From an uncultured Victivallaceae bacterium (GTDB lineage Bacteria > Verrucomicrobiota > Lentisphaeria > Victivallales > Victivallaceae), in NCBI GenBank assembly GCA_964402715.1, contig CAYODJ010000007.1:1-64000 (forward strand): DNA of 64,000 nucleotides. Reading direction: 5' to 3'. The translations under genes were made by a program, and so were the position numbers. Numbering within the stretch: the stretch's first letter is position 1; every line of letters begins with the position of its first letter. Shown piece by piece: positions 3,409 to 56,854 of this stretch. The notes beneath the pieces were generated by a model. That model saw nothing but the letters and a program-made list of their open reading frames with translations, searched no databases and was not told the DNA's origin.

Positions 3409-3954
3409 ATGAATGAGGAGCTTTTTTTCCGCGGATCGCTGCTGCTGGCCGCTCTGATCTGGGCGGCTCTCGGGTGCTGGACATATACCCTGAACGGGGA
3501 CAAACTTCCGCGCTGGGAGAAGCTGCCGCGCAACCGCGCGGTCGGCGCGCTGCTGGGCTGTGCCGCGCTGATCTGGTGCATCCCGCACGCGCGGCCGGTT
3601 GTCTTCGACTGGATGGTGCCGTATCTGTGGCCCATGGCGATCGGCGGGACGGTTCTCGGATACTGTTTTCTGGATTATCTGTTCGCGCGCGCCGCCGGCG
3701 GTCTGCTGATACTCGTCTCCTACCATTTCGTGCACGGCACGTTCGATTTTCACACGCAGGGGGCGCCTTTTCTGGCGATTCTCTACTGGATAATCGGCGT
3801 TTTTGGCATCTGCATCTCCGGAAAGCCGTACTGGCTTAGGGACTTGCTGCGGGCTCTCTGCGGGAAGGTCCGCCTCCGTCTGTTTACATGCGGATTTCTG
3901 CTGCTGCTGGGCGTCGCCACCCTGCTCGGCGGACTGCTGCCCAAAGCACAGTGA
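3409..3954 (+). CDS. Polytopic membrane protein, unknown function
   Basis: 181-aa ORF with 5-6 hydrophobic helices; SD GGGAGGAA upstream of ATG 3409. Confidence 0.5.
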   Translation: MNEELFFRGSLLLAALIWAALGCWTYTLNGDKLPRWEKLPRNRAVGALLGCAALIWCIPHARPVVFDWMVPYLWPMAIGGTVLGYCFLDYLFARAAGGLLILVSYHFVHGTFDFHTQGAPFLAILYWIIGVFGICISGKPYWLRDLLRALCGKVRLRLFTCGFLLLLGVATLLGGLLPKAQ

Positions 3955-3960
3955 GCGGCG

Positions 3961-4623
3961 ATGTTCGATCTTGTCGCCTTTGCGTCGGAATGCGGAGCGG
4001 CGGATCCGGAACGCTTCGCGCGGGAGTCCGGACAGCTCTTCCGGCTGCTGACGGACGCGAACCGGACGGTGAATCTGACCCGTATCGTCGCGCCGGAGGA
4101 CTTCGAGACGAAGCATGTGGCCGACTCGCTGTCGATCGCCCGCTTTTTCCCGGAATTCAGGACTGAACCTCTGCGGGTAGCGGACATCGGCTGCGGGGCG
4201 GGTTTTCCGTCGCTGGTGCTGGCCATGGCTTTCCCCGGGCTTCAGGTGACGGCCGTCGATTCCACCGGGAAGAAAATCGCGTTTGTCGAACGTGCGGCGG
4301 CGGTGTTGAGGCTGCGGAATCTGAGGACGCTTGCCGGACGATCCTGCGAGCTCAACCGCCGGCGGGAACACCAGCGTCGGTTCGACGTCGTCACCGCGCG
4401 CGCCGTCGGTCCGGCGAGCGAAATCTGGAGGGACGCCCGGAACTTTCCGAACCGTGACGGCCGTTTCATTCTCTACAAGACGCCGCGGCAGGCGGAAGCG
4501 GAACTCGCCGACGTCCGCAGGATCTCGCACGGTCTGTCATGGTGCCTCACCGATGTCTTCGAGCTTCCGGGAAACTGCGGTCAGCGGCTGTTTCTTTATT
4601 CGGACCGTCCTTCCTCCGGCTGA
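3961..4623 (+). CDS. rsmG: 16S rRNA (guanine527-N7)-methyltransferase RsmG (GidB)
   Basis: NLTRI...FETKHVADSL...DIGCGAGFP...TAVDSTGKKIAF motifs typical of GidB. Confidence 0.7.
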   Translation: MFDLVAFASECGAADPERFARESGQLFRLLTDANRTVNLTRIVAPEDFETKHVADSLSIARFFPEFRTEPLRVADIGCGAGFPSLVLAMAFPGLQVTAVDSTGKKIAFVERAAAVLRLRNLRTLAGRSCELNRRREHQRRFDVVTARAVGPASEIWRDARNFPNRDGRFILYKTPRQAEAELADVRRISHGLSWCLTDVFELPGNCGQRLFLYSDRPSSG

Positions 4624-11708: not shown

Positions 11709-11785
11709 GCACCCGTAGCTCAGCTGGATAGAGCGTCTGCCTCCGGAGCAGAAGGCCATGAGTTCGAATCTCATCGGGTGTACCA
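11709..11785 (+). tRNA. tRNA-Arg (anticodon CCG)
   Basis: Cloverleaf folded by hand: acceptor GCACCCG/CGGGTGT, anticodon loop CTCCGGA, T-arm ATGAG-TTCGAAT-CTCAT, CCA encoded. Confidence 0.8.
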
Positions 11786-12614: not shown

Positions 12615-14156
12615 ATGTCGCTTATGGGAAAGAAAAATAACGATGCCGGATGTGTCAGGGCGGATCGTCATGCGATGCGGCGGGCCGCCGTTTTCGCGGC
12701 GGCGATCGGCTGCGGGATGCTGACTGGGTGCGGAACCCTTAACTTCAGCACCGCGAAAGCGCCTGGCGAGGAATATCACGTCTCCGTCCAGACTCTGCCG
12801 GTCTACGAAGCGCCGGCGGCGGATTCCAAAATTGTCGCGTCCCTGAATCTCGGAGACAGCTTCACTGCGGAGGAAATTGTGCAGCCGACAGGGCATCTGT
12901 CGGCGGATCAGGCCGATCCGTGGGTCCGCTCCGTCCGGAACGGCGTGAAATTCTATGCTCCCGGCGGAGCGGTCATCAGCAGACAGCTCTGGGATGCGCA
13001 GCTGAAAGGGCTGCCGCCGCGCGGCGAGGCCAAGGTCAAGAATTTCACCTCGGCCAAGCACCAGGAAAGCGACGCCGAGCTGGAACAGGCGGGGAGCTAC
13101 CGTCCCGGTTCGCTGCGTCTGATGCTCGGGGCGGCGGGAAAGACGAAAGCGGCGTCGGAAACCGCGCATCCGGAAGCTCTGACCGACTACATCGTCGCCC
13201 AGAACGGCAGACGTGCCGCCGCGGAACTTCCGAAACAGCAGAAGTCCACTTTCGGGCTGCCGCCGCTTCAGGCGTTCACCGAAATCGGTCCCTATCAGGA
13301 GTTCGACCTCGGGGCGGGGCTGGCGGCGTTCATGATGCCGAAAGCGCTCAGGCCGGATCATCCGGTCACCCTGTACGTCGCGGACGTGGTCGGGAAGCTG
13401 CTGAAGAAGTCCGCCATGCCGCAGACGTTCAGCGGATATCACGTGCTGGTTCTTAAGGACGATGAAACCGTCAACGCCTGCGCCGCTCCAGGAGGATTCG
13501 TGATCGTGACGACCGGCATGCTGAAATTCCTCTAAAACGAGAACGAGCTCGCCATGATTCTCGCCCATGAGATCGGACACCTTGAATTTCATCACAGCGT
13601 CCGCGACATGGGAGCGGAGAACTACGCGGCCTTCTCCCTGGCCGCTCTGGACGAGGCCACCGATCTCAATGATCCTGCCGTGAAGCAGGCCATCGTCGAT
13701 CAGGCGACCGAGGTCACGCGGGCCGTTCCGTTCTTCGACCGTCTGGATCCTGCGGTTCAGCAGCAGCGAATCGACGATGCGGTCTCCGCCGCGCTCAAGG
13801 AGGCGCAGGAGGCCAAGTCGAAGGCTCTGGCCAAGATGTCGGAGCTGGCTATGATGGTGGGCGACACCCTCCCCACCGGCTACAACGTCGAGTTCGAGGC
13901 CGCCGCCGACCGGCGCGCCGTCAGTCTCGGCAGCGCGGCGGGATATGACACCGCCGCGCTGTCCGGAGTGCTGGAGCGGCTGAAGAAGCTCAACAACGGA
14001 TTCGGAGAAGCCTATCCGGCGGATCGCGACGTGCGGGTGGAGAATTTCCGTCGGAATTATCCGGCGGCGCGGAACGTCATGTTCGTCGGCAGCTACTCCG
14101 ACATTCAGAAGAGCGTCGGCTCTCTGGGGTCGTCGGATCTCTTCGTCAACAAGTGA
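12615..14156 (+). pseudogene. M48-family zinc metallopeptidase (LoiP/BepA-like, lipoprotein signal) interrupted by an in-frame TAA
   Basis: ORFs 12615-13535 and 13554-14156 share a frame. The stop TAA at 13533-13535 falls inside ...APGGFVIVTTGMLKFL*NENELAMILAHEIGHLEFHH, i.e. just before the HEXXH active site. Confidence 0.6.
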
Positions 14157-14217: not shown

Positions 14218-15906
14218 ATGAAAAGACAAAACAGCGACAATCGGCCGCAGTTTGCAGATATGGCGGAGAAACTGGCGTCCCTGGAGGCGGTTCTGCTGGA
14301 ATGGAAGGAAGAGCAGGACAAGGCGGCGCAGAACCGCGAGAAACGCTGGAGGAAATACGCGTTACAGCTGTGCGGCTTCGTCGGCATCATGGCCGGCTTC
14401 GTCTGGACCTGCTCCGAAATGGGCGCATGGTATTACGAAAAGCTCCAGATCGCCAAAATGGCCGACCGCTACGCGGCGGTTTCGCGGGAGCTCTATGAAA
14501 AGGAGAACAACCCGGAGGTGGCTCTGGAGCTTCTCTCCCGCGCCATAGATCTGGACGACGGGAATTTCGAGTACCGCTTCCAGGAGGCATACATCAAGGG
14601 GGCGGGGGCGGTCCGCCTCCTGCTGAACCTGGATCGTCCGTTCAACAGAGAGGAGCTGGATCGCGCCCATCAGGCGCTCGCCGACGCGAAGTTTCTCAAG
14701 GAGCTGCGCCCGGAACGCGAGGAAGGATATATTCTGGAGTCTCAGATTTACACGGCGCTGCGGGATTATGAACAGGCCGAAAAATCCATCCGGCACGCCA
14801 TGCGGCTGAATCCGGACAACTCTTTCGCGCAGGTCAGATACGCGACGCTGCTTTTCAACCGCAGACGGCTCTCCGAGGCGTCGGAGGTGATCGCGCGGGC
14901 GCTGAAGCTGGATCCGCAGTCGCAGTGGGCGCATCTGTGGAACGGTCTGATCCTGAACGCCATGAATAAGAAAAGCGAGGCGATCGCGGAAATCCGGAAA
15001 GCCATCGAGCTGAATCCGAAATTCGACACGGCGATCTACAATCTGGGATGCTGCTACCTGAACGCGCGTCCGCGTCAGTTCGCGCTCGCCAGGGAGTGCT
15101 TCCAGAAAGCTCTGGAAATCAATCCGGCCTACAAGGAGGCCTATTACCAGCTCGGCATGTCCTACGGCTATCAGGATCGCTACGACGTGGCCCTGGTCTA
15201 CATGGACAAGGCCATCGCGCTGGAGGCCGGCTACCTGACCGCCAGAAACTGGCGCGCGCTGGTTCTCTTCGAGATGAAGCGGTACGAGGAGGCCGTGGAC
15301 GAGTACGGCAGCGCGATTCTGCTGGATCCGCGCAACGACGAGCTGTACGTCCGCCGCGCCGCCGCCGCTCTCGAATGCAGGAAGATAGACGCCGCCGTCA
15401 GGGATCTCGATTTCGCGCTGGAGCTGAACCCGTCCAACGTCGAGGCGGTCACCATTCTCAGCAAAGTCTATGTGGAGACCGGCAATTTCGACCTGGCTCT
15501 TTCGAGGATCGGCGGTGCGCTGCAGGTCTGCTCCGACCGGAACATGAAGTCGGAGCTGTACGGGCTGCGCGCGGGACTCCGCCACAAGATGAAAGACAAC
15601 GCGAACGCCGTCGCGGACCAGACGCTGGCGGTCGAATGCTACAGAAGCAAGTACACCCTGATGAAACGCGCCCTCTACCTCAAGGATGCCGGGGAGAAGG
15701 ACAAGGCGCTGGCGGATCTGACGGAAATCCACCGGATCGATCCGTCCTACGCCCCCGCATGGAAGGAGGAGACGCTTCTGCTGAGCGATTCCAGTCCTAA
15801 GGAGGCGCTGAACACGCTTGACAGGTATCTGGCTCTCCGCCCGCAGGATCAGTCCATGATCGAATTGAAACGGAAAATCGGAGAGGCGGCCGCGAAGAGG
15901 AAATGA
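14218..15906 (+). CDS. TPR-repeat protein with one N-terminal TM helix
   Basis: Multiple 34-aa TPR-like repeats (AxxxxxALxLxPxxxxA/YxxLG pattern) over about 450 aa. Confidence 0.65.
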   Translation: MKRQNSDNRPQFADMAEKLASLEAVLLEWKEEQDKAAQNREKRWRKYALQLCGFVGIMAGFVWTCSEMGAWYYEKLQIAKMADRYAAVSRELYEKENNPEVALELLSRAIDLDDGNFEYRFQEAYIKGAGAVRLLLNLDRPFNREELDRAHQALADAKFLKELRPEREEGYILESQIYTALRDYEQAEKSIRHAMRLNPDNSFAQVRYATLLFNRRRLSEASEVIARALKLDPQSQWAHLWNGLILNAMNKKSEAIAEIRKAIELNPKFDTAIYNLGCCYLNARPRQFALARECFQKALEINPAYKEAYYQLGMSYGYQDRYDVALVYMDKAIALEAGYLTARNWRALVLFEMKRYEEAVDEYGSAILLDPRNDELYVRRAAAALECRKIDAAVRDLDFALELNPSNVEAVTILSKVYVETGNFDLALSRIGGALQVCSDRNMKSELYGLRAGLRHKMKDNANAVADQTLAVECYRSKYTLMKRALYLKDAGEKDKALADLTEIHRIDPSYAPAWKEETLLLSDSSPKEALNTLDRYLALRPQDQSMIELKRKIGEAAAKRK

Positions 15907-16081
15907 GAGAGCGCCGTTCCATATCCTCTTTCAGAGGGACTCTGAAGCGGTGGATTTGTTCCCCGCAGGTGCGGGGGTTCGTCATCGCCCGCGTTGTTCC
16001 CAATGCGGCGCGGACTCAATCTTCTCTGCGGAGAGATCGACGCTGAAAAATAACGGACACCCAAACGGGAGACAGGAAATC

Positions 16082-17374
16082 ATGGCAGTCGTCAATGTGG
16101 TGAAATGGGATGCCGCGCCGGGGGTGCTAGCGTGGAAATTTCCGAGTCAGGAGCTTTCGACATGGACGCAGCTGATCGTCTCGGAGTCGCAGGAGGCGAT
16201 TCTGCTGAAGGAGGGCAGAATCGCCGGACCGTTCGGCAGCGGGAGGCATGTGCTGAGCACCGCCAACTATCCGGTGCTGACCAGTGTCCTGAAGCTCGCC
16301 ACCGGCAGCACCCCGTTCACGGCCGAAGTCTGGTTTCTTCAGAAAGCATTCAAACTGGACGTGAAATGGGGAACCAGCGACGCCATGCAGCTCGAAGATC
16401 CGCAGTATCACATCATGCTCCCGGTACGTGCGTTCGGCCAGTACGGCATCGTGGTGGAGGATTCCGCGAAGTTTCTGCTGAAGCTGGTCGGGACACTTCC
16501 CGCTTTCGTGGAGCGGACTCTGGTCGGTTATTTCAGGGGGATCATCGTCACCAGCGTCAAGGACATGATCGCCAAATATCTGGTTGAGAAGCAGGTGTCG
16601 ATCCTTCAAATCTCCGCGCATCTGAACGAAATTTCCTCTTCGCTCGAAGAGCGGATCAGCGGAGAGCTGGCCGAATACGGCATCAGGATCGTCAGCTTCA
16701 ACGTCAACTCCGTCTCCACCGACGACCGCGACCCCGCCGTCCGGAAGCTCAAGGAGGCGCTGGCCGCCAAGGCGGAGATGGACATCATGGGGTACAGCTA
16801 CCAGCAGAAGCGCGCTTTCGACACCATGGAGACGGCGGCCGGCAACAGCGGCGGCGGATCCGGAGTCATGAATGCCGGAATCGGTCTCGGCATGGGCGTC
16901 GGGCTCGGTGCGCCGATGAGCAACATGATGAGCATGATCGGGCGGAATCTGCAACCTGCCTCTCCGGCGGTGCGCTGCCCCGGCTGCGGACGGACGGCAC
17001 CGGCCGACTCGGCGTTCTGTCCGGGGTGCGGCGCGTGCTTCGAACAGCCTGAGCAGCCGCAGGGAGGAGGGATGATCGAGTGCGACAAGTGCGGCACCAG
17101 GAGTCCGAAAGGCACTAAGTTCTGCCCGAACTGCGGAGATGTTTTCTTCTGTTGCCCGGAGTGCGGTTGCGACAATCCGGAGGACGCGGCGCTGTGCCGG
17201 TCATGCGGCAAGCCTCTGCCACTGAAATGTCCCGAATGCGGCGCTCGTCAGCAGGGGAAGGTCAAGTTCTGCGGAACGTGCGGCGCCAAACTGCAGAAGG
17301 ATTGTTCGAACTGCGGAGCGCCGCAGACTTCCGGCGTCAAGTTCTGTCCGGCATGCGGCACCAAACTGAATTAA
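16082..17374 (+). CDS. SPFH/band-7 domain protein with five C-terminal zinc-ribbon repeats (COG4260/YdjI-like)
   Basis: N-terminal SPFH-like domain (VVKWDAAPGVLAWKFP...), then CPGCG...CPGCG, CDKCG...CPNCG, CPECG...CRSCG, CPECG...CGTCG, CSNCG...CPACG. SD GGAGA precedes ATG 16082. Confidence 0.65.
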   Translation: MAVVNVVKWDAAPGVLAWKFPSQELSTWTQLIVSESQEAILLKEGRIAGPFGSGRHVLSTANYPVLTSVLKLATGSTPFTAEVWFLQKAFKLDVKWGTSDAMQLEDPQYHIMLPVRAFGQYGIVVEDSAKFLLKLVGTLPAFVERTLVGYFRGIIVTSVKDMIAKYLVEKQVSILQISAHLNEISSSLEERISGELAEYGIRIVSFNVNSVSTDDRDPAVRKLKEALAAKAEMDIMGYSYQQKRAFDTMETAAGNSGGGSGVMNAGIGLGMGVGLGAPMSNMMSMIGRNLQPASPAVRCPGCGRTAPADSAFCPGCGACFEQPEQPQGGGMIECDKCGTRSPKGTKFCPNCGDVFFCCPECGCDNPEDAALCRSCGKPLPLKCPECGARQQGKVKFCGTCGAKLQKDCSNCGAPQTSGVKFCPACGTKLN

Positions 17375-17384
17375 GGAGACGACC

Positions 17385-18089
17385 ATGTTCAAATCACCGA
17401 GAACCGCCCTGCTGATTCCGGGAGTCCTCTGCATCGGAATCACTCTGTTCGCCGGAACGCTTCTCGTGCGGCCGGAACTGAGGAACACGGCCTACTGGTA
17501 CACGGCAGGTGCGCTGATGGCGGCCGAAGCCATGGTTTTTCTTGCGTTCATGGATGTCGGCGGCGGCCACCGCGACCGCGCCATGCCGTTCCGCATAGGG
17601 AACGTGCTGGTCGCCGTGCTGTACCTCGTTTTCACTTTCGTGATGATCATCCCGTACGCGGCCGAAGCTTCGACGAACGCAATCTGCCTGCTGCAGCTCG
17701 CCGGTCTCTTCACGGCGCTGACGCTGCATGTTCTCTTTCTGCTGGCTCACCGTGCGGTGTCAGATCAGGCACGGAGGGCTGCTGCGGAACGGGCGGATGT
17801 CGTGAACTTCAAAGTGGAGATCGAATCATTCAAGACGGAGCACGAGAATCTGCTACTTAAGACACCGGAGCTTCGGGAGGAGATGCGTGAGCTTTCCGAG
17901 GCGGTGCGTTTCGCGTCCGAAAGCATCCCCGGTTCCGAAACGGCCGATTCGCGGATACACGACGCGATCGGAAGACTGAAGAAATGTGCGCAAACCGATG
18001 ATGCCGACATGAGGGTGCTCTCCGTCATCATTCAGGAACTCCTGGTTCTTTTCCGGAAACGACAGATTCTGATTCGTGGGCTCCGATAG
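17385..18089 (+). CDS. Membrane protein (4 TM + C-terminal coiled-coil), unknown function
   Basis: Hydrophobic N-terminal half, charged helical C-terminal half; starts 11 nt after the upstream gene. Confidence 0.5.
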   Translation: MFKSPRTALLIPGVLCIGITLFAGTLLVRPELRNTAYWYTAGALMAAEAMVFLAFMDVGGGHRDRAMPFRIGNVLVAVLYLVFTFVMIIPYAAEASTNAICLLQLAGLFTALTLHVLFLLAHRAVSDQARRAAAERADVVNFKVEIESFKTEHENLLLKTPELREEMRELSEAVRFASESIPGSETADSRIHDAIGRLKKCAQTDDADMRVLSVIIQELLVLFRKRQILIRGLR

Positions 18090-18139
18090 GAACATCGTCC
18101 CGATTTCATCAGCAAATCAAAAGAGGAGAAAAAGAGAAA

Positions 18140-18484
18140 ATGAATTGTCCCTATTGTGACAATCCACTGCCGCTTCAGGCGGCCCAGTGCCCCAGCTGCG
18201 GCGCAACGGTTCCGCAGACGGCGGGTCAGGCGGGTGCATCTTCGCCGGTGACGCGGCAGAAGTCCCCGTGGCTGGCCTCGGTGCTCTCTCTGTTTCTATT
18301 CGCTGGATGCGGACAGATATACAACAGACAGGTCGGTAAGGGAATTCTCCTGATCATCCTCTGCATCATATGCTGGAGCGAAGATCTCGGTTTCATCCTA
18401 CAGATCGTCGGCGGCATCGACGCCTACAGGATCGCCGCGAAGATCAACGGCGGGCGGCAGGTGGGCAAATGGGAGTGGTTCTAG
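18140..18484 (+). CDS. Zinc-ribbon + TM2-domain membrane protein
   Basis: CPYCDNPLPLQAAQCPSCG ribbon; TM2-like LSLFLFAGCGQIYNRQVGKGILLIIL...GGIDAYRIA. Confidence 0.6.
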   Translation: MNCPYCDNPLPLQAAQCPSCGATVPQTAGQAGASSPVTRQKSPWLASVLSLFLFAGCGQIYNRQVGKGILLIILCIICWSEDLGFILQIVGGIDAYRIAAKINGGRQVGKWEWF

Positions 18485-18620
18485 CTCCCTGCGTCCGGGA
18501 ATAAATGCGCCGGATGAGTCAGCGGGATTATCGGTGCCGGAAACTGGAGCTGATGATCGGGAATAACCTGACAGAAAGTACTTCAATGACTAAAGTCAAG
18601 GGGATATGAAAAAAAGGTAG

Positions 18621-18707
18621 TGCCCCTATTGCAACAATCCACTGCCGCTTCAGGCGATCAAGTTCCCCAGCTGCGGCGGTGCTATAGGAGTTGCTGTATC
18701 GGCTTGA
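18621..18707 (+). pseudogene. Decayed duplicate of the zinc-ribbon N-terminus (fragment)
   Basis: CCCTATTG(C/T)(A/G)ACAATCCACTGCCGCTTCAGGCG matches the start of the 18140 gene nearly exactly. It encodes *CPYCNNPLPLQAIKFPSCGG..., the start codon is replaced by TAG, and a stop follows after 29 codons. Confidence 0.5.
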
Positions 18708-18769
18708 CAGATGAGCTGCAGGTGTTATCCCTGAAGGGCGAAAACCAAACAATAAGGAGTGTTTTGGCG

Positions 18770-19207
18770 ATGTTATGTAAGAATTGCGGGAATCAATTGG
18801 CGGGGGATGTGCGTGTCTGCCCCAAATGCGGCGTTGAGATCGGGGGGGGGGGGGGGACGACCTCCTCCGCAGGAAAATCCCCGTCGCCGTCGACGGATGA
18901 TTCGGGTTCGCTGGTGAGTCGGGTCACCGGTTTGCTAAAGCCGGCTGTCGTCCTGCCCCGGACGGCCGAAATCGAGGCTCTCGCTGCGGGGCCGGCAAAG
19001 AGTCTGAAGGTTTATATATTGCTGGCGCTCTTCCTCGGGAATTTGGGAGCTCATAGTTTCTATGCCGGATACCGTCGGAGAGCACTGACGGCGCTGATGT
19101 GTGCAATTCCTCCATGCTGCTGTCTGCTCACGATTTTCCCGGCAGTGGGGGCGATCCAGGATATGATTCACACAAGATGCGATGCGGCCGGGCGTCCCAT
19201 GATATGA
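18770..19207 (+). CDS. Zinc-ribbon + Gly-rich linker + TM2-domain membrane protein (paralog)
   Basis: MLCKNCGNQLAGDVRVCPKCG ribbon; TM2-like YILLALFLGNLGAHSFYAGYRRRALTALM. SD AAGGAG upstream of ATG 18770. Confidence 0.55.
   Translation: MLCKNCGNQLAGDVRVCPKCGVEIGGGGGTTSSAGKSPSPSTDDSGSLVSRVTGLLKPAVVLPRTAEIEALAAGPAKSLKVYILLALFLGNLGAHSFYAGYRRRALTALMCAIPPCCCLLTIFPAVGAIQDMIHTRCDAAGRPMI
18842..18857. repeat. Homopolymeric poly(G) tract (15-16 nt) inside the coding sequence, encoding a Gly5 run
   Basis: Read directly. The ORF track needs 15 G to keep the frame open, while my count of the printed text gives 16; I could not reconcile this to the single base. Confidence 0.7.
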
Positions 19208-19208
19208 G

Positions 19209-19586
19209 ATGAGGAGAGGCCTTAATTCTGCAACATGCGCGATCGTGGCCGTTCCGGCCATCGTCGCGCTTTATTTGCTGTACAGGGAGGGACCGCAGGG
19301 AGTGTGGTGGTTTCCGCCCTGCATTTTTCACCGCATAACTCACTGGTACTGTCCGGGGTGCGGCTCGACCCGTGCGGTGTACAGGCTGCTGCATGGCGAT
19401 CTTCGCGGATGTCTTACTGCCAATGTGCTGCTGTTTCCCGGTGTTCTGCTGACCTTATGTCTGGCGACAAGAAGAAATGTCACATTGACCGGCAGGGAAT
19501 ATTTCGGCGTCATAGCGCTCTACTCGTTTTACTGGATTGTCCGGAATCTGCCGATTGAGCCTTTTACTTTTCTGATGCCGCGGTAA
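19209..19586 (+). CDS. DUF2752-family small membrane protein
   Basis: HWYCPGCGSTRA motif characteristic of DUF2752, plus 3-4 TM helices. Starts 2 nt after the upstream stop. Confidence 0.55.
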   Translation: MRRGLNSATCAIVAVPAIVALYLLYREGPQGVWWFPPCIFHRITHWYCPGCGSTRAVYRLLHGDLRGCLTANVLLFPGVLLTLCLATRRNVTLTGREYFGVIALYSFYWIVRNLPIEPFTFLMPR

Positions 19587-20215: not shown

Positions 20216-20289
20216 GGGCGATTAGCTCAGTCGGCTAGAGCGTCACGTTTACACCGTGAATGTCGGCGGTTCGAGTCCGTCATCGCCCA
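20216..20289 (+). tRNA. tRNA-Val (anticodon TAC), no encoded CCA
   Basis: Hand fold: acceptor GGGCGAT/ATCGCCC, anticodon stem TCACG/CGTGA with loop TTTACAC, T-loop TTCGAGT. One of the five T-stem pairs is an A/T mismatch, so this call is less secure than tRNA-Arg. Confidence 0.6.
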
Positions 20290-49059: not shown

Positions 49060-49356
49060 GTCGGGAACGTGCGTCTCCGCTGCGTTTTGGTCCTCTTCCG
49101 CCCGAAAGGCAGGCGTACGGACATCCGATCTACTGTATCTCCGGAGACCGCCGATTTCAAGGGCGGAACACGGTTCCGCCGCCCTTCGGGCCGCCGCCGG
49201 ATGGCGCGATTTTTTCCGGCCGCCCTTGCATTTTGGCAAATCGGGTGCTAATAATACAGGCGTGGTGGTGTCTACTCGGAAGACGGACATCCATGTTCTG
49301 TGTTCATCGTGTCGGATTCGCGTGCGGGTTGTCTTAAGCGGGAGATAGTCGCGGTT

Positions 49357-51303
49357 ATGGATGACAGGAATGATTTGCGGGCTGCGGTGGACCGCTCCCG
49401 GCTGATGGTCAGATTGTCGGCGGTCGGCGGCGTCTTGTCCCTGACGATGCTGATACTGGTCGTGATCATGGGCGTCGTCAAGGAAAGTTTCGCGGGATCC
49501 GATGTTTTCTCTCTGTCCGTGATTCCGTTGAGCCTGTCGCTGTTCTTCGCGGCGGCGGCGCTGGTCTACGGCGTCCTCGACAATGCGGCGGCGGCGGAGA
49601 GGGAGAGCAGATTCCTGCTGGAGAGACGCAAGGACAACCGCGTGCTCGACGCCGAGGAGGACGTGCGCTTCACGGCGGGCCGCTCCTTCGAGAACTACAG
49701 GAAGTACGCCCCCTACGTGGTGACCGTGGCGGCCGCCCTGGGCGCGGCTCTGCTGCTCTTTCTGTTCTACCGCTACTGGGCGGCGAGGACGGGCGGCGGC
49801 CCGAAGCCGCTGAACGCCTTGAATTCGGCTCTCGTCTCGTCGGTTCTGATGCTGATATGCATGTTCGGCGGCGCCTTCTTCGTGGGGCAGTCCCGGCAGA
49901 GTTCGTTCCGGTGGCTGCGTCCGCTGGGGAGCTGGCTGGTCGGCGCCGGCGGCGTCATGCTGGGCGGCGCGGTGGTGTCCGTCTGCAACCACAATCAGGT
50001 GGCTCTCGACAGGCCTCTGTCGCTGGTCGTCTTCTGGCTGCTGGGGGCACTGGACGCGGAGCTGCTGCTGAATTTCGTCATCGAGTTCTACCGTCCCAGG
50101 ACGCTGGCGGAGACGCGTCCCCTCTTCGAAAGCAGGCTGCTGGCCCTGTTCACCGAGCCGGGCGGCGTCATGCGCAACATGGCCGACGCGCTGGACTACC
50201 AGTTCGGCTTCAAGGTTTCGGGGACGTGGATTTACGGGTTCGTCGAACGCTCGCTGTTTCCGATATGCGTGGTGTGGGCGCTCACCCTCTGGCTGTTCAC
50301 GTCGATCCACGAGGTCGGTCCGGACGAGGTCGGAATACGCGAACGTTTCGGGAGCGTGGTGTCCGAGAAGCCGCTCCGCGCCGGAATCTACTTCGAAATG
50401 CCGTGGCCGTTCGGCAGCATCAACCGGTTCAGCTGCGCCCGCGTCCATGAGATAGTCGCCGGCGAGAACGAACATGCCGAGGACGGCGACCGCCGGCAGG
50501 GGAAAAAGCCGGAGGTGATTCTCTGGACCAAGGCGCATGCCTCCGGCGAGAACAATTTCGTCGTGGCGGTCGAGCCGGAGGGGAGCATGCAGCAGCGCGA
50601 GGACCGGGACGGCGTCTCGGTCGCGTTTCTGTCGCTGGGGATGCCGGTGCAGTACCGCATCAGGGAGAGCCAGCTGATGGACTACGCCTACAGGAACCGG
50701 GATCCGGAGGCGATGCTGAGGCATATCAGCGAACAGGTGGTGACGGAGTATCTGGCGAGCTGCTCGCTGATGCACATCATGTCCGACGGAAGGCACGAGG
50801 CCGCAAACGTGATGCGCAGGCGCATCCAGAAGCTCGCCGACGAGGAGAGGCTGGGCGTCGACGTCGTCGCGGTCAACCTGCTGGGGGTTCATCCTCCGGT
50901 GGAGAAGGTCGCGCCGGCATTCCAGGAGGTCATCGGCGCCATGGAGCAGAAGGAGGCGAGGGTGCTGGAGGCGAAGGCCTACGCCGCGAAAATTCTTCCC
51001 GACGCCGAATCGAAGGCGCGGCAGGTCGTGCAGGACGCGGAGTCGTATCGGTACAGGACCAGCAAGGTCGCGGAGGCCGAGAGCCAGCGGTTTGACAAGC
51101 AGCTGCGTTCGTATCAGGCCATGCCCGCGATGTTCATGCTGAACTCCCGTCTGTCTCTTCTGGAGAAGGACGCGGCCAACGCCCGGAAATTCATTTTGAG
51201 CTCTTCGCTGCGCAACGAGATTTACGAGCTCAATTTCGAACAGAAGGAGCGCCTTGATCTTATCGACGCGGATTTGGGAACGTTGGTCGACCGGAAAAAG
51301 TGA
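49357..51303 (+). CDS. HflK-like SPFH protein with an about 300-aa six-TM N-terminal extension
   Basis: C-terminal half matches HflK (EVGIRERFGSVVS...GIYFEMPWPFGSI...KAYAAKILPDAESKARQ). Upstream are six predicted TM helices. The track start 49300 is a GTG; the first ATG is at 49357. Confidence 0.6.
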   Translation: MDDRNDLRAAVDRSRLMVRLSAVGGVLSLTMLILVVIMGVVKESFAGSDVFSLSVIPLSLSLFFAAAALVYGVLDNAAAAERESRFLLERRKDNRVLDAEEDVRFTAGRSFENYRKYAPYVVTVAAALGAALLLFLFYRYWAARTGGGPKPLNALNSALVSSVLMLICMFGGAFFVGQSRQSSFRWLRPLGSWLVGAGGVMLGGAVVSVCNHNQVALDRPLSLVVFWLLGALDAELLLNFVIEFYRPRTLAETRPLFESRLLALFTEPGGVMRNMADALDYQFGFKVSGTWIYGFVERSLFPICVVWALTLWLFTSIHEVGPDEVGIRERFGSVVSEKPLRAGIYFEMPWPFGSINRFSCARVHEIVAGENEHAEDGDRRQGKKPEVILWTKAHASGENNFVVAVEPEGSMQQREDRDGVSVAFLSLGMPVQYRIRESQLMDYAYRNRDPEAMLRHISEQVVTEYLASCSLMHIMSDGRHEAANVMRRRIQKLADEERLGVDVVAVNLLGVHPPVEKVAPAFQEVIGAMEQKEARVLEAKAYAAKILPDAESKARQVVQDAESYRYRTSKVAEAESQRFDKQLRSYQAMPAMFMLNSRLSLLEKDAANARKFILSSSLRNEIYELNFEQKERLDLIDADLGTLVDRKK

Positions 51304-51343
51304 GTCAATCGGGCAGGAAGTCATTCGAGGAGGCGAGCAGGTT

Positions 51344-52279
51344 ATGTCATCGGAACGTTTTTTAAGGCACTGGCCGACGGTTTTGCTCGGCGTGATTGTG
51401 GCGGCGGTGCTGTTCGCGGCGATCGTCACGTACCGCGTCAACCAGAACGAGTGCGCCGTGGTCACCATGCTGGGCAGGATTCAGCAGGGCAGTCCCGGAC
51501 CCGGGCTGCATCTGCGGTGGCCGTACCCGTTTCAGCGCGTCTACAAGTTCGATCGGCGCACCCGCTGCTTCGAGGGCAACGCCGGCAAACTGGAGGAGTC
51601 CACGACCGCGGACGGGCAGAACGTCCTGATCGGAACCTTTGTCAACTACCGGATCAGCGATCCCAAATTGTTCTTCACCTCTTTCGAAAGGATCGGCGAG
51701 GCCGAAAAGCAGCTGAACAACTGGATGAGGGATTCGCGGAACGCGGTCTTCGGCCGCTACCGCTTCGCTCAGATCATCAACACCGACCCGGCGAAGATGA
51801 AGCTCGGGGTCATGCAGGACGAGATTCTCAGGGAGCTGGCGGATCGCGCGGCTCCGTTCGGGCTGGAGATTCAGTTCGTCGGCATAAACGTGATAAACGT
51901 GCCGACGACGATCAGCGAGGAGGTGTTCAAGCGCATGATTCAGGAGCGCAAGGTGGTGGCTCAGGATTACCTGTCGAGAGGGGCGCAGGAGGCGTCCGAC
52001 ATCCGGACCAAGGCGGATCAGAAGCGCGCCGAGATCCTCACCAACGCCGAGGCCACCGCCAAGAGCATCCGCGCCCAGGGGGACGCCGAGGCCGCCAAGT
52101 ATTACGAGGTCTTCAAGGAGAATCCGGAGCTGGCGGCTTTCCTGAGAAAGCTCGATTCGCTGCGGCAGATTATGAAGGGCCGCACCACATTGGTGCTCGA
52201 CACCAACGCCGCCCCGTTCGACCTGCTGAAGATCGGAGCGGACAAGCTGGCTCCGGCGGCGGGGCCGGTCGCGCACTGA
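51344..52279 (+). CDS. hflC: HflC-like SPFH/band-7 protein
   Basis: Single TM, then an SPFH domain and a coiled-coil tail (RGAQEASDIRTKADQKRAEILTNAEA). SD GAGGAGG before ATG 51344. Confidence 0.65.
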   Translation: MSSERFLRHWPTVLLGVIVAAVLFAAIVTYRVNQNECAVVTMLGRIQQGSPGPGLHLRWPYPFQRVYKFDRRTRCFEGNAGKLEESTTADGQNVLIGTFVNYRISDPKLFFTSFERIGEAEKQLNNWMRDSRNAVFGRYRFAQIINTDPAKMKLGVMQDEILRELADRAAPFGLEIQFVGINVINVPTTISEEVFKRMIQERKVVAQDYLSRGAQEASDIRTKADQKRAEILTNAEATAKSIRAQGDAEAAKYYEVFKENPELAAFLRKLDSLRQIMKGRTTLVLDTNAAPFDLLKIGADKLAPAAGPVAH

Positions 52280-52304
52280 CGGTCGGCGGGAGAAAGGCGG
52301 AATC

Positions 52305-53435
52305 ATGATGAAAACGGGAGATGACGTCGTGGACGCTGGCGGCGGTCAGTATGAACTGGGGCTCAAGTCGCTGATCCGCAGCATGCGGATCGCCTTCTTC
52401 ATGCTGCTGCTGCTGATCGTCGGCATGCTGGTCTATTTCTTCTCGCTGGGCGGCTATGTGGAGGTGAAGCCGCAGGAGGCGGTGATCGTGCTCCGTTTCG
52501 GCAGATTTCATCAGGTCTACGACGTCGGATGGCACTGGTTCGTGCCGTATCCGGTCACGAGCTTCGTGACGGTGCGGACCAGTCCGCAGTTCCTGCGGGT
52601 CGATTTCACGTCGGACGAGACATCCATAGACGGAGGCGGGGAGAGCGGCCGTTCGCTCGAACCGGGAAGGGACTCCTATCTGCTCACCGGCGACGCCAAC
52701 ATCATTCACACCGCGTGGAACGTCGCGTACCAGATTTCCGATCCGAGGAAATACTACGAGCGGCTGCAGACCCCCGCAGATCCGACCGCCCCCGACGATC
52801 TGGAGAAGGACGAGTACGGCTATACGGGGCGGCGCGGACCGCAGACGCTGCTCACCAATCTTTTCCGGCAGGCGGTGATACATGTCACCTCCGGTCTTAA
52901 AGTCGACGACATTCTCTACTCCAAGCAGAACGTGTACCGCGAGTCGGTGCAGCGGACGTTCGCCCGTCTGGTCGAAAACGCGGACTGCGGAATCGAGGTG
53001 ACCGGCGTGACGCTGGATCGCGCGTCGGTGCCGCTCAAGACGAAAGCCTCGTTCGACGAGGTGGCCGCCGCCAGCAACACGATGTCCACGCTGATCAACG
53101 AGGCCAAGGAGTACATGGTGCGGGTCAACAACGAGGTGAAATCCGACACCGTGGGCGTCATCGCCGACGCGGAGACCTACCGGAAGCAGGTGGTGTCCGA
53201 GGTCAAGGCCGGGAGCCAGTATTTCCGCAGCATCAACGAGGCCTACCGGGCCAGTCCCCGGACGGTGCTGATGGCTCTCTACAATCAGACTCTCGCCGAC
53301 GTGCTGACGGAGCAGGACGGGAAGTACATTCTGGGCACCGCGACCGCCGCGGATCGCAAACAGGTTCGACTCAAGATAAATCCGGAGCCGCCGCGCCTGG
53401 CGAATCCGGCGAATGCGGAGACGGATAATCCATGA
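52305..53435 (+). CDS. Third SPFH/band-7 domain membrane protein
   Basis: Single TM then an SPFH-like core (VIVLRFGRFHQV...GDANIIHTAWNVAYQISDP). Stop overlaps the ATPase ATG. Confidence 0.55.
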   Translation: MMKTGDDVVDAGGGQYELGLKSLIRSMRIAFFMLLLLIVGMLVYFFSLGGYVEVKPQEAVIVLRFGRFHQVYDVGWHWFVPYPVTSFVTVRTSPQFLRVDFTSDETSIDGGGESGRSLEPGRDSYLLTGDANIIHTAWNVAYQISDPRKYYERLQTPADPTAPDDLEKDEYGYTGRRGPQTLLTNLFRQAVIHVTSGLKVDDILYSKQNVYRESVQRTFARLVENADCGIEVTGVTLDRASVPLKTKASFDEVAAASNTMSTLINEAKEYMVRVNNEVKSDTVGVIADAETYRKQVVSEVKAGSQYFRSINEAYRASPRTVLMALYNQTLADVLTEQDGKYILGTATAADRKQVRLKINPEPPRLANPANAETDNP

Positions 53436-55483
53436 CTAGCCATGTGAACTGCAAATCTTGTTCGTTGGGCACGGAGGAGAGCGGAGAAGTCCGCCGTGAC
53501 CGTTCCGACGGAGACGACGGGGCGATCCGCGCGCCGGAGCACCGCCACGGGGACCTGAATCAGGCGGAGGCGGGAAGAGTCGCCTGTCCCTGCGGCCACG
53601 ACGCCGTCGGCGGCGTCGGGCACGACCGCGCCATGGGACGGGTGGCGTTCGCCCTCTGGGGCGGCATGCTGTGCGCCAACTCCTTTCTGCTGGAATGGCT
53701 GTTTCCGGAACAGCGGTTCTCCGCCATGCTCAGCGCCTTCCTCGGGGCCGTGGTGCTGGCTCTGCCCATCGTCGTCACCGCGATCAAGGATCTGCTGAAC
53801 GGCAAGGTCTACATGAACGAACTGGTGGCTCTGGCCATACTGGCGGCGCTGGTGAGCGGCGACTTCCAGAGCGCGGGCATCATCGCGTTCTTCCTGCTGC
53901 TGACCATCATCATCGAAACGAGGACCGCCAGCGGCGCGCAGCGCTCCATCGAGGAACTGATCAAGCTGACGCCGAACACCGCCAGGAAACTGGACGGCGA
54001 CCGCGAGGTGGAGGTCGACGTCTCGACGCTCCGGATCGGGGACGTCATAAGAGTGCGTCCGGGGGAGAACTTCCCCGTGGACGCCAGGATTCTGCACGGG
54101 GAGAGCACCGTCAACCAGTCGTCCATCACCGGCGAATCGCTGCCGGTCGACAAGGATGTGGACGACGAGGTGTACGCCGGCACGCAGAATCTGACCGGCG
54201 TGGTGGATCTGGAGGTCACCCGCGTCGGCGAGGACACCACTCTCGGCAAGGTGAAGGAGATGATCCTCGCTGCGGAGGGGAGCCGCTCCCCGGTGGTCCG
54301 GATCATCGACCGGTACGCGGGCTACTACACGCCGACGGTGTTGATGCTGGCCGGCGTCACGTGGTGCTTCACGACCGATATGGACAGGGTCATCACCCTG
54401 ATGGTGATCGCCTGTCCGTGCGCGGTCGTACTGGCGACTCCGACGGCGGTGGTGGCCGCCGTGGCCGCCGCGGCCCGGCTGGGCATTCTGATCAAGAACG
54501 TGAGCCATCTGGAGCTGGCCGCGCGCATCACCGCGTTCGTGTTCGACAAGACGGGGACCCTGACCGACGGCGTCCTGTCCGTCGTGAAGCTCAACGCCTT
54601 TTCCGGCTGCACGCAGGCGGAGCTGCTGAAGACGGCGGCGTCGGCGGAGCGTTACAGCAATCACCCGACGGCGCTGGCGCTGCAGTCGCTGGCCCAGGAG
54701 GCCGGCGTGCGGCTGGATTCCGTCGAGGATTTCCAGGAAGTCCACGGAAAGGGCGTGATGGGCCGGCTGGGCGGCGACGTGTGCCGGATCGGCAGGGCGA
54801 AGTGGATGACGGAGCAGGGGATAGAGATTCCGGAGCATGAGATTTCGGAGCAGGAGGGGATGAGCGTGGTCTACGTGGCGCGGGGCGGACGGCTGCTGGG
54901 ATGGATAGGATTCAAGGACAAGCTGCGGCGCGAGTCCGCCGCCATGATCGGCGGTCTGCGGAAACTTGGTGTCCGTTTCGTCGCGATGGTGACCGGGGAC
55001 AGGACGTCGGTGGCGGAGACGGTGGCTCAGCAGCTGCAGCTGGACGAGTTCCGCAGCGAGTGTCTGCCTGCGGGGAAGGTGGAGTTCGTCGAGACCGTCA
55101 AGGAGAAAGGTCTGGTCGCGGTGGTCGGCGACGGCGTGAACGACGCCCCGGCGCTGACGGCCGGGGATCTCGGCATCGCCATGGGCGCGATCGGAAGCGA
55201 CATCGCCATCAACAGCGCCTCCATCGCATTGATGACGAACGATCTCCGCCGCATACCGATGCTCGTGCATCTGTCCCGGAAGTCGCGCATGGTCATCAAT
55301 CAGAATCTGGTCTTCGGCATGCTGTTCGTCGTCGGCGGCATGGTCCTGTCGGTGTTCGGGTGGATGACTCCCATATGGGCCGCGGTGCTCCATACCTGCA
55401 GCACGCTGATCATCATCTTCAACAGCGGGCGTCTGGTCCGCACCGGTGAGGAATTGACGCTCGGGGAAAAATTCGATGGTTGA
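53432..55483 (+). CDS. P1B-type heavy-metal-translocating ATPase (CPC motif) with Cys/His-rich N-terminus instead of a canonical HMA domain
   Basis: TGES, CPC (VIACPCAVVLATP), DKTGTLT, GDGVNDAP. N-terminus has CKSC and CPCGHD His/Cys clusters. Confidence 0.8.
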   Translation: MTSHVNCKSCSLGTEESGEVRRDRSDGDDGAIRAPEHRHGDLNQAEAGRVACPCGHDAVGGVGHDRAMGRVAFALWGGMLCANSFLLEWLFPEQRFSAMLSAFLGAVVLALPIVVTAIKDLLNGKVYMNELVALAILAALVSGDFQSAGIIAFFLLLTIIIETRTASGAQRSIEELIKLTPNTARKLDGDREVEVDVSTLRIGDVIRVRPGENFPVDARILHGESTVNQSSITGESLPVDKDVDDEVYAGTQNLTGVVDLEVTRVGEDTTLGKVKEMILAAEGSRSPVVRIIDRYAGYYTPTVLMLAGVTWCFTTDMDRVITLMVIACPCAVVLATPTAVVAAVAAAARLGILIKNVSHLELAARITAFVFDKTGTLTDGVLSVVKLNAFSGCTQAELLKTAASAERYSNHPTALALQSLAQEAGVRLDSVEDFQEVHGKGVMGRLGGDVCRIGRAKWMTEQGIEIPEHEISEQEGMSVVYVARGGRLLGWIGFKDKLRRESAAMIGGLRKLGVRFVAMVTGDRTSVAETVAQQLQLDEFRSECLPAGKVEFVETVKEKGLVAVVGDGVNDAPALTAGDLGIAMGAIGSDIAINSASIALMTNDLRRIPMLVHLSRKSRMVINQNLVFGMLFVVGGMVLSVFGWMTPIWAAVLHTCSTLIIIFNSGRLVRTGEELTLGEKFDG

Positions 55484-55518
55484 ATGTCCTGTTCAAACGA
55501 GAGGAAGTTTCGCTTAAT

Positions 55519-56691
55519 ATGCCACAGCAGTCGACACCGGTAGTCAGCGCCGTCGGGCTGACCAAGACGTTCCGTGATTTCTGGGGGCGTCCAAAGGCGA
55601 AAGCCGTCAACGACGTTGATTTCGAGATCAGCGAGGGCGAGGTCGTCGGGCTGCTGGGGCCGAACGGCTCCGGCAAGTCGACCACGGTGAAGATGATTCT
55701 GGGGCTGCTGTATCCCACCGGCGGAACGCTGTCGGTGCTGGGAAGATCGCCGCGCGCGGTGGAGACCAAGCGCGAAATCGGCTATCTTCCGGAGGAGTCC
55801 TATCTGTACAAGTATCTCACGGCCGAGGAGACTCTGGATTTCTTCGGCGCCATGTTCAATCTGTCGCGGGCGGAGCGCAGACGGCGCGTCGACCAGCTGC
55901 TGGACATGGTCGGGATGGCGCATGCCAGGCGTCGGCGCGTCGGCGAGTTCTCCAAGGGAATGGCGCGGCGGATAGGGCTGGCGCAGGCCATGATCAACGA
56001 CCCGTCCTTTCTGGTTCTGGACGAACCGACTTCCGGTCTGGATCCTCTGGGGTGCAAGGAAGTCAAGAACATGATCCTGATGCTCAAGAAACGCGGCAAG
56101 ACGGTGCTGATCACCAGTCATCTGCTCAGCGACATCGAGGACGTCTGCGATCGGGTTATCATCCTGTACGGCGGGAGAGTGCGCGCCGTCGGCTCGCTGC
56201 AGGAGCTTCTCACCGTCGAGGACGAGAACAGGATCATCACGCCGGCCCTGCCGCCGGAGGCGATGAACAAGCTCGTGGCGTTGCTGCGGGAACATCTCCG
56301 CGGCGAAAAGTTTCTGATCGACCATCCGCATCGGACGCTCGAGGAATTCTTCCTGGACGTCATAAACCGCGCCAAGGAGGAAAGCGTCGAAACCGCCGGC
56401 GTCGTGGGCGGCGGAGAGATTGCGGAGTACCTCTCGGAGGACGGGAAGCGGGGCACGGTGCTCGATGAACTGATGAACGAGCAGGTGGTCGCGGCTTCCG
56501 TCGCCGAGGAAGCCCCTCGTGACGGCGCGGACGCGGCTCCGGACGTGGAGGAGAAACTGACGGAGCTGACGGACGCGGACGAACGCGGCGGTCATGAGGA
56601 GATGACGGCGGAGGAGATGCGGACAAAGGAGAAGGAGCAGATGGACGCCGTCAATGCCAGACTCGACGATTTGCTCGGCGGCAGAAAGTGA
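55519..56691 (+). CDS. ABC transporter ATP-binding protein (ABC-2 subtype) with acidic C-terminal extension
   Basis: Walker A GPNGSGKST, signature FSKGMARR, Walker B LVLDEPTSGLD. ATG 55519; the track's TTG 55480 overlaps the ATPase stop. Confidence 0.75.
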   Translation: MPQQSTPVVSAVGLTKTFRDFWGRPKAKAVNDVDFEISEGEVVGLLGPNGSGKSTTVKMILGLLYPTGGTLSVLGRSPRAVETKREIGYLPEESYLYKYLTAEETLDFFGAMFNLSRAERRRRVDQLLDMVGMAHARRRRVGEFSKGMARRIGLAQAMINDPSFLVLDEPTSGLDPLGCKEVKNMILMLKKRGKTVLITSHLLSDIEDVCDRVIILYGGRVRAVGSLQELLTVEDENRIITPALPPEAMNKLVALLREHLRGEKFLIDHPHRTLEEFFLDVINRAKEESVETAGVVGGGEIAEYLSEDGKRGTVLDELMNEQVVAASVAEEAPRDGADAAPDVEEKLTELTDADERGGHEEMTAEEMRTKEKEQMDAVNARLDDLLGGRK

Positions 56692-56854
56692 TCGCAGGCG
56701 AGTGCGCCGCCGGGGAATTTCCTCCTCCCGTCCGGGCGCGTTCCGCAGAGATTTCCGTGTGTTTCGCTCCGGGCGGGGCGCGCGCCGGCGATGAAGAGAT
56801 GAGAAATGGCGGCCTCGGGGAGAGGCTTGTCAGGTTTATGGACGCTTTTACGAT

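Follow-up and report, generated by a model that had tools for sequence, protein, structure and literature searches.

An SPFH protein with five tandem zinc ribbons, its four-transmembrane-helix partner and small zinc-ribbon membrane proteins: a candidate membrane-associated system without linked PspA

Membranes are organised by SPFH proteins in every domain of life, but to our knowledge the partners of their bacterial members are largely unknown beyond HflK/C, the flotillins and YdjI. What, then, might an SPFH protein do when its gene stands among genes for small zinc-ribbon membrane proteins, with no pspA beside it? The question is raised by positions 15950-19586 of a 64,000-nucleotide stretch of DNA from an uncultured Victivallaceae bacterium (contig CAYODJ010000007.1 of assembly GCA_964402715.1), the whole of which is referred to here as the window. 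A preliminary description of this segment placed six consecutive elements on the forward strand, and the list of open reading frames (ORFs), Pfam searches and our own reading of the sequence agreed with it on their number, strand and coordinates; every long ORF of coding-like composition between 15950 and 19586 lies on the forward strand. The sequence recurs, with 0 mismatches, in a second and independent public assembly (L001), and the closest named relatives are Victivallis and Lentisphaeria metagenome-assembled genomes from gut samples. Our analysis suggests a three-layer membrane-associated SPFH system that would work without a linked PspA and in which a membrane anchor, an SPFH scaffold and zinc-ribbon-mediated coupling would together serve a role in envelope stress. 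We give this reading an even chance of being right.

The first element encodes the SPFH protein. Its ORF (15950-17374) matched Band_7_1 (PF13421) with 135.4 bits against a cut-off of 24 (E=2.7e-39; profile positions 2-197 of 211), while the C-terminal ribbons matched the Pfam models DZR (81 bits) and Zn_Ribbon_1 (75 bits). Five tandem C4 zinc ribbons occupy residues 299-425, and 20 of the 20 cysteines in the five CxxC-x(9-11)-CxxC units are invariant among 13 aligned homologues that come from several phyla (alignment A1); the same alignment conserves a Gly/Met-rich segment, at about residues 258-288, as M.AG.G.G.G.G....M. The preliminary assignment of an SPFH protein ending in five zinc ribbons thus stood, whereas its start at 15950, which is merely the first GTG following a stop codon, did not. 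Since all 13 aligned homologues begin at MA(V/I)..V.KW, the equivalent of the ATG at 16082, the protein probably starts there, so that the gene would span 16082-17374 on the forward strand and encode 430 residues, with 15950 an over-extended start. No transmembrane (TM) segment was noted in the product, which is therefore probably soluble or peripheral, and a sequence search found no related solved structure. Homologues carry the Joint Genome Institute (JGI) label 'membrane protease subunit (stomatin/prohibitin family)'. More than 3,354 of them were retrieved by a word-indexed search (more than 3,300 clusters at 90% identity), and a pattern scan of GTDB species genomes matched at least 599 stretches, at least 575 of which encode a relative. 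Identity stays at about 50% among Lentisphaeria, Paenibacillus, Clostridia, Geobacter, Planctomycetota, Acidobacteriota, Synergistaceae and Halioglobus; judged from these sequences, the family is large and slowly evolving.

The second element (17385-18089, forward strand) encodes a protein of 234 residues, hereafter X234, which no Pfam or NCBIfam model matches. An AlphaFold2 run on 6 sequences gave a poor model (predicted local distance difference test [pLDDT] 69, predicted template modelling score [pTM] 0.44) and was discarded in favour of a run on a 135-sequence alignment, which reached a pLDDT of 95.7 and a pTM of 0.79. In this model, TM helices span residues 5-27, 35-59, 67-92 and 97 to about 120, and the fourth helix extends to residue 152 before three further helices at 161-175, 185-203 and 209-233. 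Because of this long helix and the three that follow it, the C-terminal part is modelled as a helical bundle and no simple coiled coil; the protein had been described as a four-TM/coiled-coil protein, of which the four TM helices are borne out and the simple coiled coil is not. Both termini and the bundle are predicted by the positive-inside rule to be cytoplasmic, on the same side as the SPFH protein. Near-invariant residues are T20, E48 (in the second TM helix), G72, Y80 (in the third), D178, L198 and R226. An exhaustive HMMER scan recovered 1,264 representative clusters at 50% identity (E<=1e-3), nearly all of 225-240 residues, and identity between phyla is only 15-25% (alignment A2). The word-indexed search returned just 3 matches with a single sequence and 6 with a 30-sequence profile, because the family is divergent and TM-rich words swamp the candidate list. 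Comparison with solved structures gave nothing related by sequence and nothing informative by fold. From its sequences, X234 constitutes a new protein family.

How far the two genes belong together was read from 88 loci, comprising the 80 best genome matches to the SPFH query, metagenome contigs and the window itself, of which 82 non-redundant loci were used for the counts of zinc-ribbon TM proteins and of PspA. In at least 74 of the 88 loci, an iterated hidden Markov model (HMM) placed an X234 homologue directly beside the SPFH gene, and several of the exceptions are contig ends. X234 usually lies 8-20 nt downstream of the SPFH gene, while some Clostridia have it upstream or on both sides. 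The pair occurs in Lentisphaeria, Paenibacillus, Clostridia, Geobacter and other Deltaproteobacteria, Planctomycetota, Acidobacteriota, Synergistaceae and Gammaproteobacteria, and the genes that flank it vary by locus, so the pair behaves as a self-contained unit. Conservation thus shows, at the level of gene neighbourhoods, a core of two near-constant partners, the five-ribbon SPFH protein and X234. The genes grouped together in the preliminary description do co-occur outside this genome, in layers: SPFH with X234 nearly always, a zinc-ribbon TM protein in about 88% of loci, and DUF2752 in four.

Several variants of the pair were also observed. An X234 paralogue lies directly upstream of the SPFH gene in L036, L072, L075 and L079 and in L035, L042 and L054 (Clostridia), and the last three carry a second paralogue downstream, giving the order X-SPFH-X. 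A protein of 67-70 residues is encoded just upstream of the first X234 paralogue in L035, L042, L054 and L079. A divergent XRE-type helix-turn-helix regulator of about 106 residues recurs upstream in 8 loci.

Is the pair, then, part of a PspA system? The preliminary description had noted that pspA is absent from the locus, and the searches bore this out. Neither the window nor the 88 loci gave a match to a two-seed PspA HMM at E<1, and a composition screen validated on the E. coli and B. subtilis PspA proteins found no PspA-like ORF in the loci or anywhere in the 64 kb of the window. PF04012 was likewise absent among the precomputed Pfam calls on called genes of the loci, and none of the 82 non-redundant loci encodes PspA within 10 kb. 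The same description had also held that the domain set matches the B. subtilis genes ydjG, ydjH and ydjI, and here the result was different. YdjI is a soluble protein whose localisation depends on the membrane proteins YdjG and YdjH and which is required for PspA foci (PMC8581546); YdjH is a membrane protein with a TPM_phosphatase domain, YdjG combines two zinc ribbons, a YpeB/NTF2-like domain and a TM segment, and the type of protein that joins Band-7 to a C-terminal zinc ribbon has been described in the same work (Ravi et al. 2024, PMC11237479). The SPFH protein of the window is collinear with YdjI at 22% identity (E=3e-19; the termini of the YdjI sequence used fit the primers in PMC8581546). 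On this comparison it is a distant YdjI relative and the only part of the module that is homologous to the B. subtilis system. Pfam detected no TPM or NTF2-like domain in the six module products (nine products scanned; E<=0.01 for TPM), and TM2 and DUF2752 lie outside ydjGHI. Of the four features that define YdjGHI, the YdjI-type SPFH protein is thus present, and the other three, a YdjH-type protein, a YdjG-type protein and a pspA gene in the same operon, are missing. Because the TPM and NTF2-like domains are absent and TM2 and DUF2752 are foreign to ydjGHI, the likeness is, as far as domain content tells, one of design and not of membership.

These results bear on an alternative in which the module is a receptor of the YdjGHI/SamGHI type that recruits a remotely encoded PspA or Vipp1, the ESCRT-III-like proteins, to damaged membrane. 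The YdjI-type character of the SPFH protein and the dependence of PspA foci on YdjI are consistent with such a role, as are the archaeal 'Meth_adaptin' ESCRT loci, which encode proteins that join SPFH, a coiled coil and a zinc ribbon (Makarova et al. 2024, PMC11188069). A dedicated partner, however, would be expected to be linked to pspA at least sometimes, and no such linkage was seen in the window or within 10 kb in the non-redundant loci; the partners that contact PspA, the TPM protein YdjH and the NTF2-like protein YdjG, are absent as well. In addition, SamGHI itself has roles independent of PspA, with developmental phenotypes that do not need it (preprint 10.64898/2026.02.06.704340). We consider a PspA receptor unlikely.

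The third layer of the proposed three-layer system consists of membrane proteins that carry a zinc ribbon. When the nearest same-strand genes are taken, one upstream and three downstream, 72 of the 82 non-redundant loci encode at least one zinc-ribbon TM protein, compared with 13 of the 563 remaining genes of those loci, an enrichment of about 38-fold beside the pair. When the neighbours were clustered, what follows the pair proved nearly always to be one or more genes for a membrane protein with a single ribbon, whose TM tail differs by lineage: TM2, TM2-like, DUF2628-like in some Proteobacteria and Acidobacteriota, 2-4 TM segments followed by a C-terminal ribbon in Firmicutes and others (81 genes in 49 loci), and large proteins with an N-terminal ribbon in Deltaproteobacteria. 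Within Lentisphaeria, a single head type (MNCPYCxNPxP..CPxCGAP; head alignment A6) is joined to TM2-like, TM2 and other tails. In one Lentisphaeria subgroup (L002, L011, L019 and L057) the neighbourhood of the SPFH/X234 pair holds another fixed set of accessory genes, which in L057 lies upstream of the pair and which encodes a soluble protein of 145-163 residues, a TM protein of about 151-159 residues and a protein of about 105-112 residues with a zinc ribbon and a C-terminal TM segment, none of which falls in a Pfam family.

The window encodes two such proteins, of 114 and 145 residues, each with one ribbon and a two-TM hairpin, which had been taken for two paralogs of a zinc-ribbon-TM2 protein. 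For the second (18770-19207, forward strand) the TM2 assignment is secure, with 35.9 bits against PF05154 (cut-off 27.9; E=8.5e-9). The first (18140-18484, forward strand; Pfam zinc ribbon at E of about 1e-3) remained below the TM2 threshold with 15.6 bits (E=0.019), as did four orthologues at 13.8-16.6 bits. The Pfam searches hence upheld the preliminary SPFH, zinc-ribbon and DUF2752 calls and the second TM2 call, but gave no secure TM2 domain in the first small protein. Orthologues of the first protein occupy the same position in L171, L005/L014, L008, L009 and L015, and the one in L009 reaches 26.5 bits against DUF5683 (cut-off 26.7). The gene for the second is absent from the closest relative, L171. 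Between the two lies a decayed zinc-ribbon head (about 18607-18700, forward strand), also named in the preliminary description, and it is real: it reads ATG AAA AAA AGG TAG TGC CCC TAT TGC AAC AAT CCA CTG CCG CTT CAG..., with a stop at codon 5 and a Cys-to-Phe change (head alignment A6), its frame differs from that of the gene that follows, and about 55 nt of it are nearly identical to the 5' end of the 18140-18484 gene (DNA alignment to 18140-18203). The second gene, for the zinc-ribbon-TM2 protein, contains a run of 15 G (18842-18856) that encodes GGGGG and has the same length in L001; it is the longest homopolymer of the window, the next longest being G8 and T9, and could mark either phase variation by slipped-strand mispairing or a place where assembly errors arise easily.

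The last element (19209-19586, forward strand) encodes a membrane protein of 125 residues that matched DUF2752 (PF10825) with 56.8 bits (cut-off 27; E=2.3e-15), and its ATG lies 2 nt past the last base of the preceding TGA, as first described. It carries the motif H..CPxCGxTR, in which H45, C48, P49, C51, G52 and R55 are invariant among four sequences (alignment A5). DUF2752 accompanies the SPFH module in only 4 distinct loci, the window included. A profile scan of metagenome contigs yielded 80 further DUF2752 loci (L091-L170), where the gene is often directly preceded by one for a protein of about 116-135 residues with an N-terminal zinc ribbon and two TM segments, the latter bearing the motif '..CCCLPFGIVAI.. 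A.QV .. GD..GA .. AK.W', which is CD225/dispanin-like by eye only. In these 80 loci no X234 was found, and the SPFH model picked up only zinc-ribbon-containing proteins at about 16-24 bits. Since pairs of DUF2752 and a zinc-ribbon two-TM protein occur without SPFH and X234, we take them, on this distribution, to be a two-gene cassette in its own right, to which the SPFH module of some Lentisphaeria has become linked. We know of no experimental study of this pair.

The existence of such pairs without an SPFH protein is also what one would expect if the segment were simply two unrelated cassettes placed side by side, and the GC content at third codon positions is lower in 18770-19207 (0.64) than in the three upstream genes (0.71-0.78). 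The roughly 38-fold enrichment of zinc-ribbon TM genes beside the pair runs counter to chance juxtaposition, which we judge to be improbable to much the same degree as the PspA receptor.

How, then, might the three layers work together? In the system that we propose, X234 would act as a membrane anchor or sensor and draw the SPFH protein to the cytoplasmic side of the membrane, in parallel with YdjH and YdjG, which bring soluble YdjI there in B. subtilis. The SPFH protein would oligomerise at this site into a sub-membrane scaffold, as other SPFH proteins do. The cytoplasmic zinc-ribbon head of the small proteins, which is of the same class as the tail repeats of the SPFH protein, may serve as a handle that couples them to SPFH or X234, either by direct contact with the ribbon array or through a shared ligand, so that the small membrane proteins would be clients or co-sensors corralled by the scaffold. 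The whole could organise or survey membrane proteins or lipid domains under envelope stress.

Several points weigh against this proposal. The scaffold and surveillance role is extrapolated, by analogy, from other SPFH families. Physical coupling between X234 and the SPFH protein, and through the zinc-ribbon heads, is a prediction, and the structure modelling covered X234 alone. Zinc-ribbon TM proteins are common in bacteria, and the ribbon could have a purpose unrelated to SPFH. The locus statistics cover only the five-ribbon subfamily, the 80 genome loci being at least 46% identical to the SPFH query, and the gene calls in the loci were crude ORF picks. Lastly, PspA could be encoded elsewhere in these genomes, our search here having covered 64 kb of the genome.

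A bolder form of the same scheme is conceivable, though we are rather doubtful of it. It would make the system a pan-bacterial, PspA-independent surveillance machine in which the short cytoplasmic zinc-ribbon head is an address tag and an X234-anchored SPFH cage, through its array of five ribbons, captures interchangeable small proteins, namely TM2, TM2-like and DUF2628-like proteins and, indirectly, DUF2752. If true, it would give bacterial TM2 and DUF2752 their first functional context.

It is very improbable that the locus is instead a conflict or abortive-infection system, with X234 as a SLATT-like membrane-perforating effector restrained by SPFH and with variable zinc-ribbon TM proteins as sensors, for although X234 has a weak SLATT_3 match (E=0.008), single members match SLATT_5 (8 of 135), SLATT_1 (2) and SLATT_6 (1) with a best E of 3.4e-4, the third components vary and caspase-like and insertion-sequence genes lie near one locus (L090), these scores are far under the curated cut-offs (16.1 bits against 45 for SLATT_3), 64 of the 135 X234 members match the N-terminal four-TM region of EPS_sugtrans equally weakly, so that the SLATT similarity looks like generic TM similarity, none of the five module products matched PADLOC-DB v2, the flanking genes are housekeeping genes and not defence islands, and the SPFH protein keeps about 50% identity between phyla and an invariant set of cysteines, which sets it apart from fast-evolving defence genes. 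Both a SLATT and an EPS_sugtrans (polyprenyl glycosylphosphotransferase) identity of X234 were accordingly rejected as sub-threshold matches of TM composition.

The three-layer system, if it is borne out, would be a widespread three-part SPFH system found in many phyla, with a near-constant partner family for which Pfam and NCBIfam hold no model. It offers a functional hypothesis for parts that are common and orphan, namely small TM proteins with an N-terminal zinc ribbon, TM2 and DUF2752; the TM2 domain is conserved up to the human TM2D proteins. A YdjI-type SPFH design without linked PspA also fits the PspA-independent signalling roles of SamGHI. Homologues of the five-ribbon SPFH protein occur in culturable Paenibacillus, Thomasclavelia cocleata, Tissierella and Halioglobus. 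No surprising biochemistry is implied as yet. The preliminary description had considered the arrangement uncharacterised as a unit, and our literature search agrees, in that it found no paper describing it or the pair of five-ribbon SPFH protein and X234, and nothing relevant on COG4260, Band_7_1/PF13421 or DUF2752/PF10825.

Upstream of the module, on the same strand, two ORFs (12615-13535 and 13554-14156) make up an M48 lipoprotein peptidase and a third (14218-15906) encodes a TPR protein that has a TM segment at its N terminus; both proteins were identified by Pfam and are of uncertain membership. The order M48-TPR-...-SPFH with an intact M48 gene occurs in L171 and L009 only, and M48 and TPR were rejected as module members because their synteny is confined to these nearest relatives. 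In the window a stop at 13533-13535, immediately ahead of the HEIGH zinc-binding motif, splits the M48 gene into parts of 306 and 200 residues, while the orthologues are intact (509 residues in L171, 503 in L009); the split is probably a pseudogene or a sequencing error. L171 carries between its TPR and SPFH genes an Ion_trans gene (3547-4428; a voltage-gated-type cation channel of 293 residues) that overlaps the SPFH start, where the window has a 175-nt gap. The M48-TPR-SPFH segment is bracketed by tRNA-Arg(ccg) at 11709-11785 and tRNA-Val(tac) at 20216-20289, and DUF2752 is separated from tRNA-Val by 630 nt of low GC (0.556) without a convincing gene. About 30 kb further downstream the window has another SPFH cluster (49300-59877, forward strand), which begins with three consecutive Band_7 (PF01145) genes of 667, 341 and 376 residues and continues with a P-type ATPase (53432-55483), an ABC ATPase (55480-56691) and two proteins without a Pfam match (56855-58285 and 58282-59877).

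Among known systems, the archaeal proteins that join SPFH, a coiled coil and a zinc ribbon likewise combine SPFH with a zinc ribbon in a membrane-remodelling context, a likeness of description, but they are linked to ESCRT-III/Vps4 genes, whereas no ESCRT-III-like gene is present here. The pairs of DUF2752 and a zinc-ribbon two-TM protein found elsewhere differ from the window in that their two-TM part is, by eye, CD225/dispanin-like rather than TM2 and that SPFH and X234 are not nearby. Classical SPFH families form oligomeric rings or cages on the membrane, and their operons (HflK/C-FtsH, stomatin/QmcA-NfeD, FloT/FloA-NfeD2/YuaF) likewise set an SPFH gene beside a dedicated membrane partner. 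Compared with them, the protein here belongs to Band_7_1, bears a zinc-ribbon array and lacks both an NfeD partner and any TM segment or hairpin of its own; neither is a protease fused or consistently linked, the M48 gene being syntenic in the closest relatives only. Against B. subtilis YdjGHI, the SPFH protein has five zinc ribbons where YdjI has one, the partner is X234, with four TM helices and a helical bundle, in place of the TPM-domain YdjH, and the zinc-ribbon membrane proteins are tiny ribbon-plus-hairpin proteins in place of YdjG with its two ribbons, NTF2-like domain and TM segment; DUF2752 has been added, and no locus examined here has pspA in or near the operon, unlike PspA-YdjGHI. 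What the two share is a soluble Band-7/SPFH protein with a Gly/Met-rich low-complexity segment and C-terminal zinc-ribbon structure, encoded beside a membrane protein that bears a zinc ribbon and a second membrane protein.

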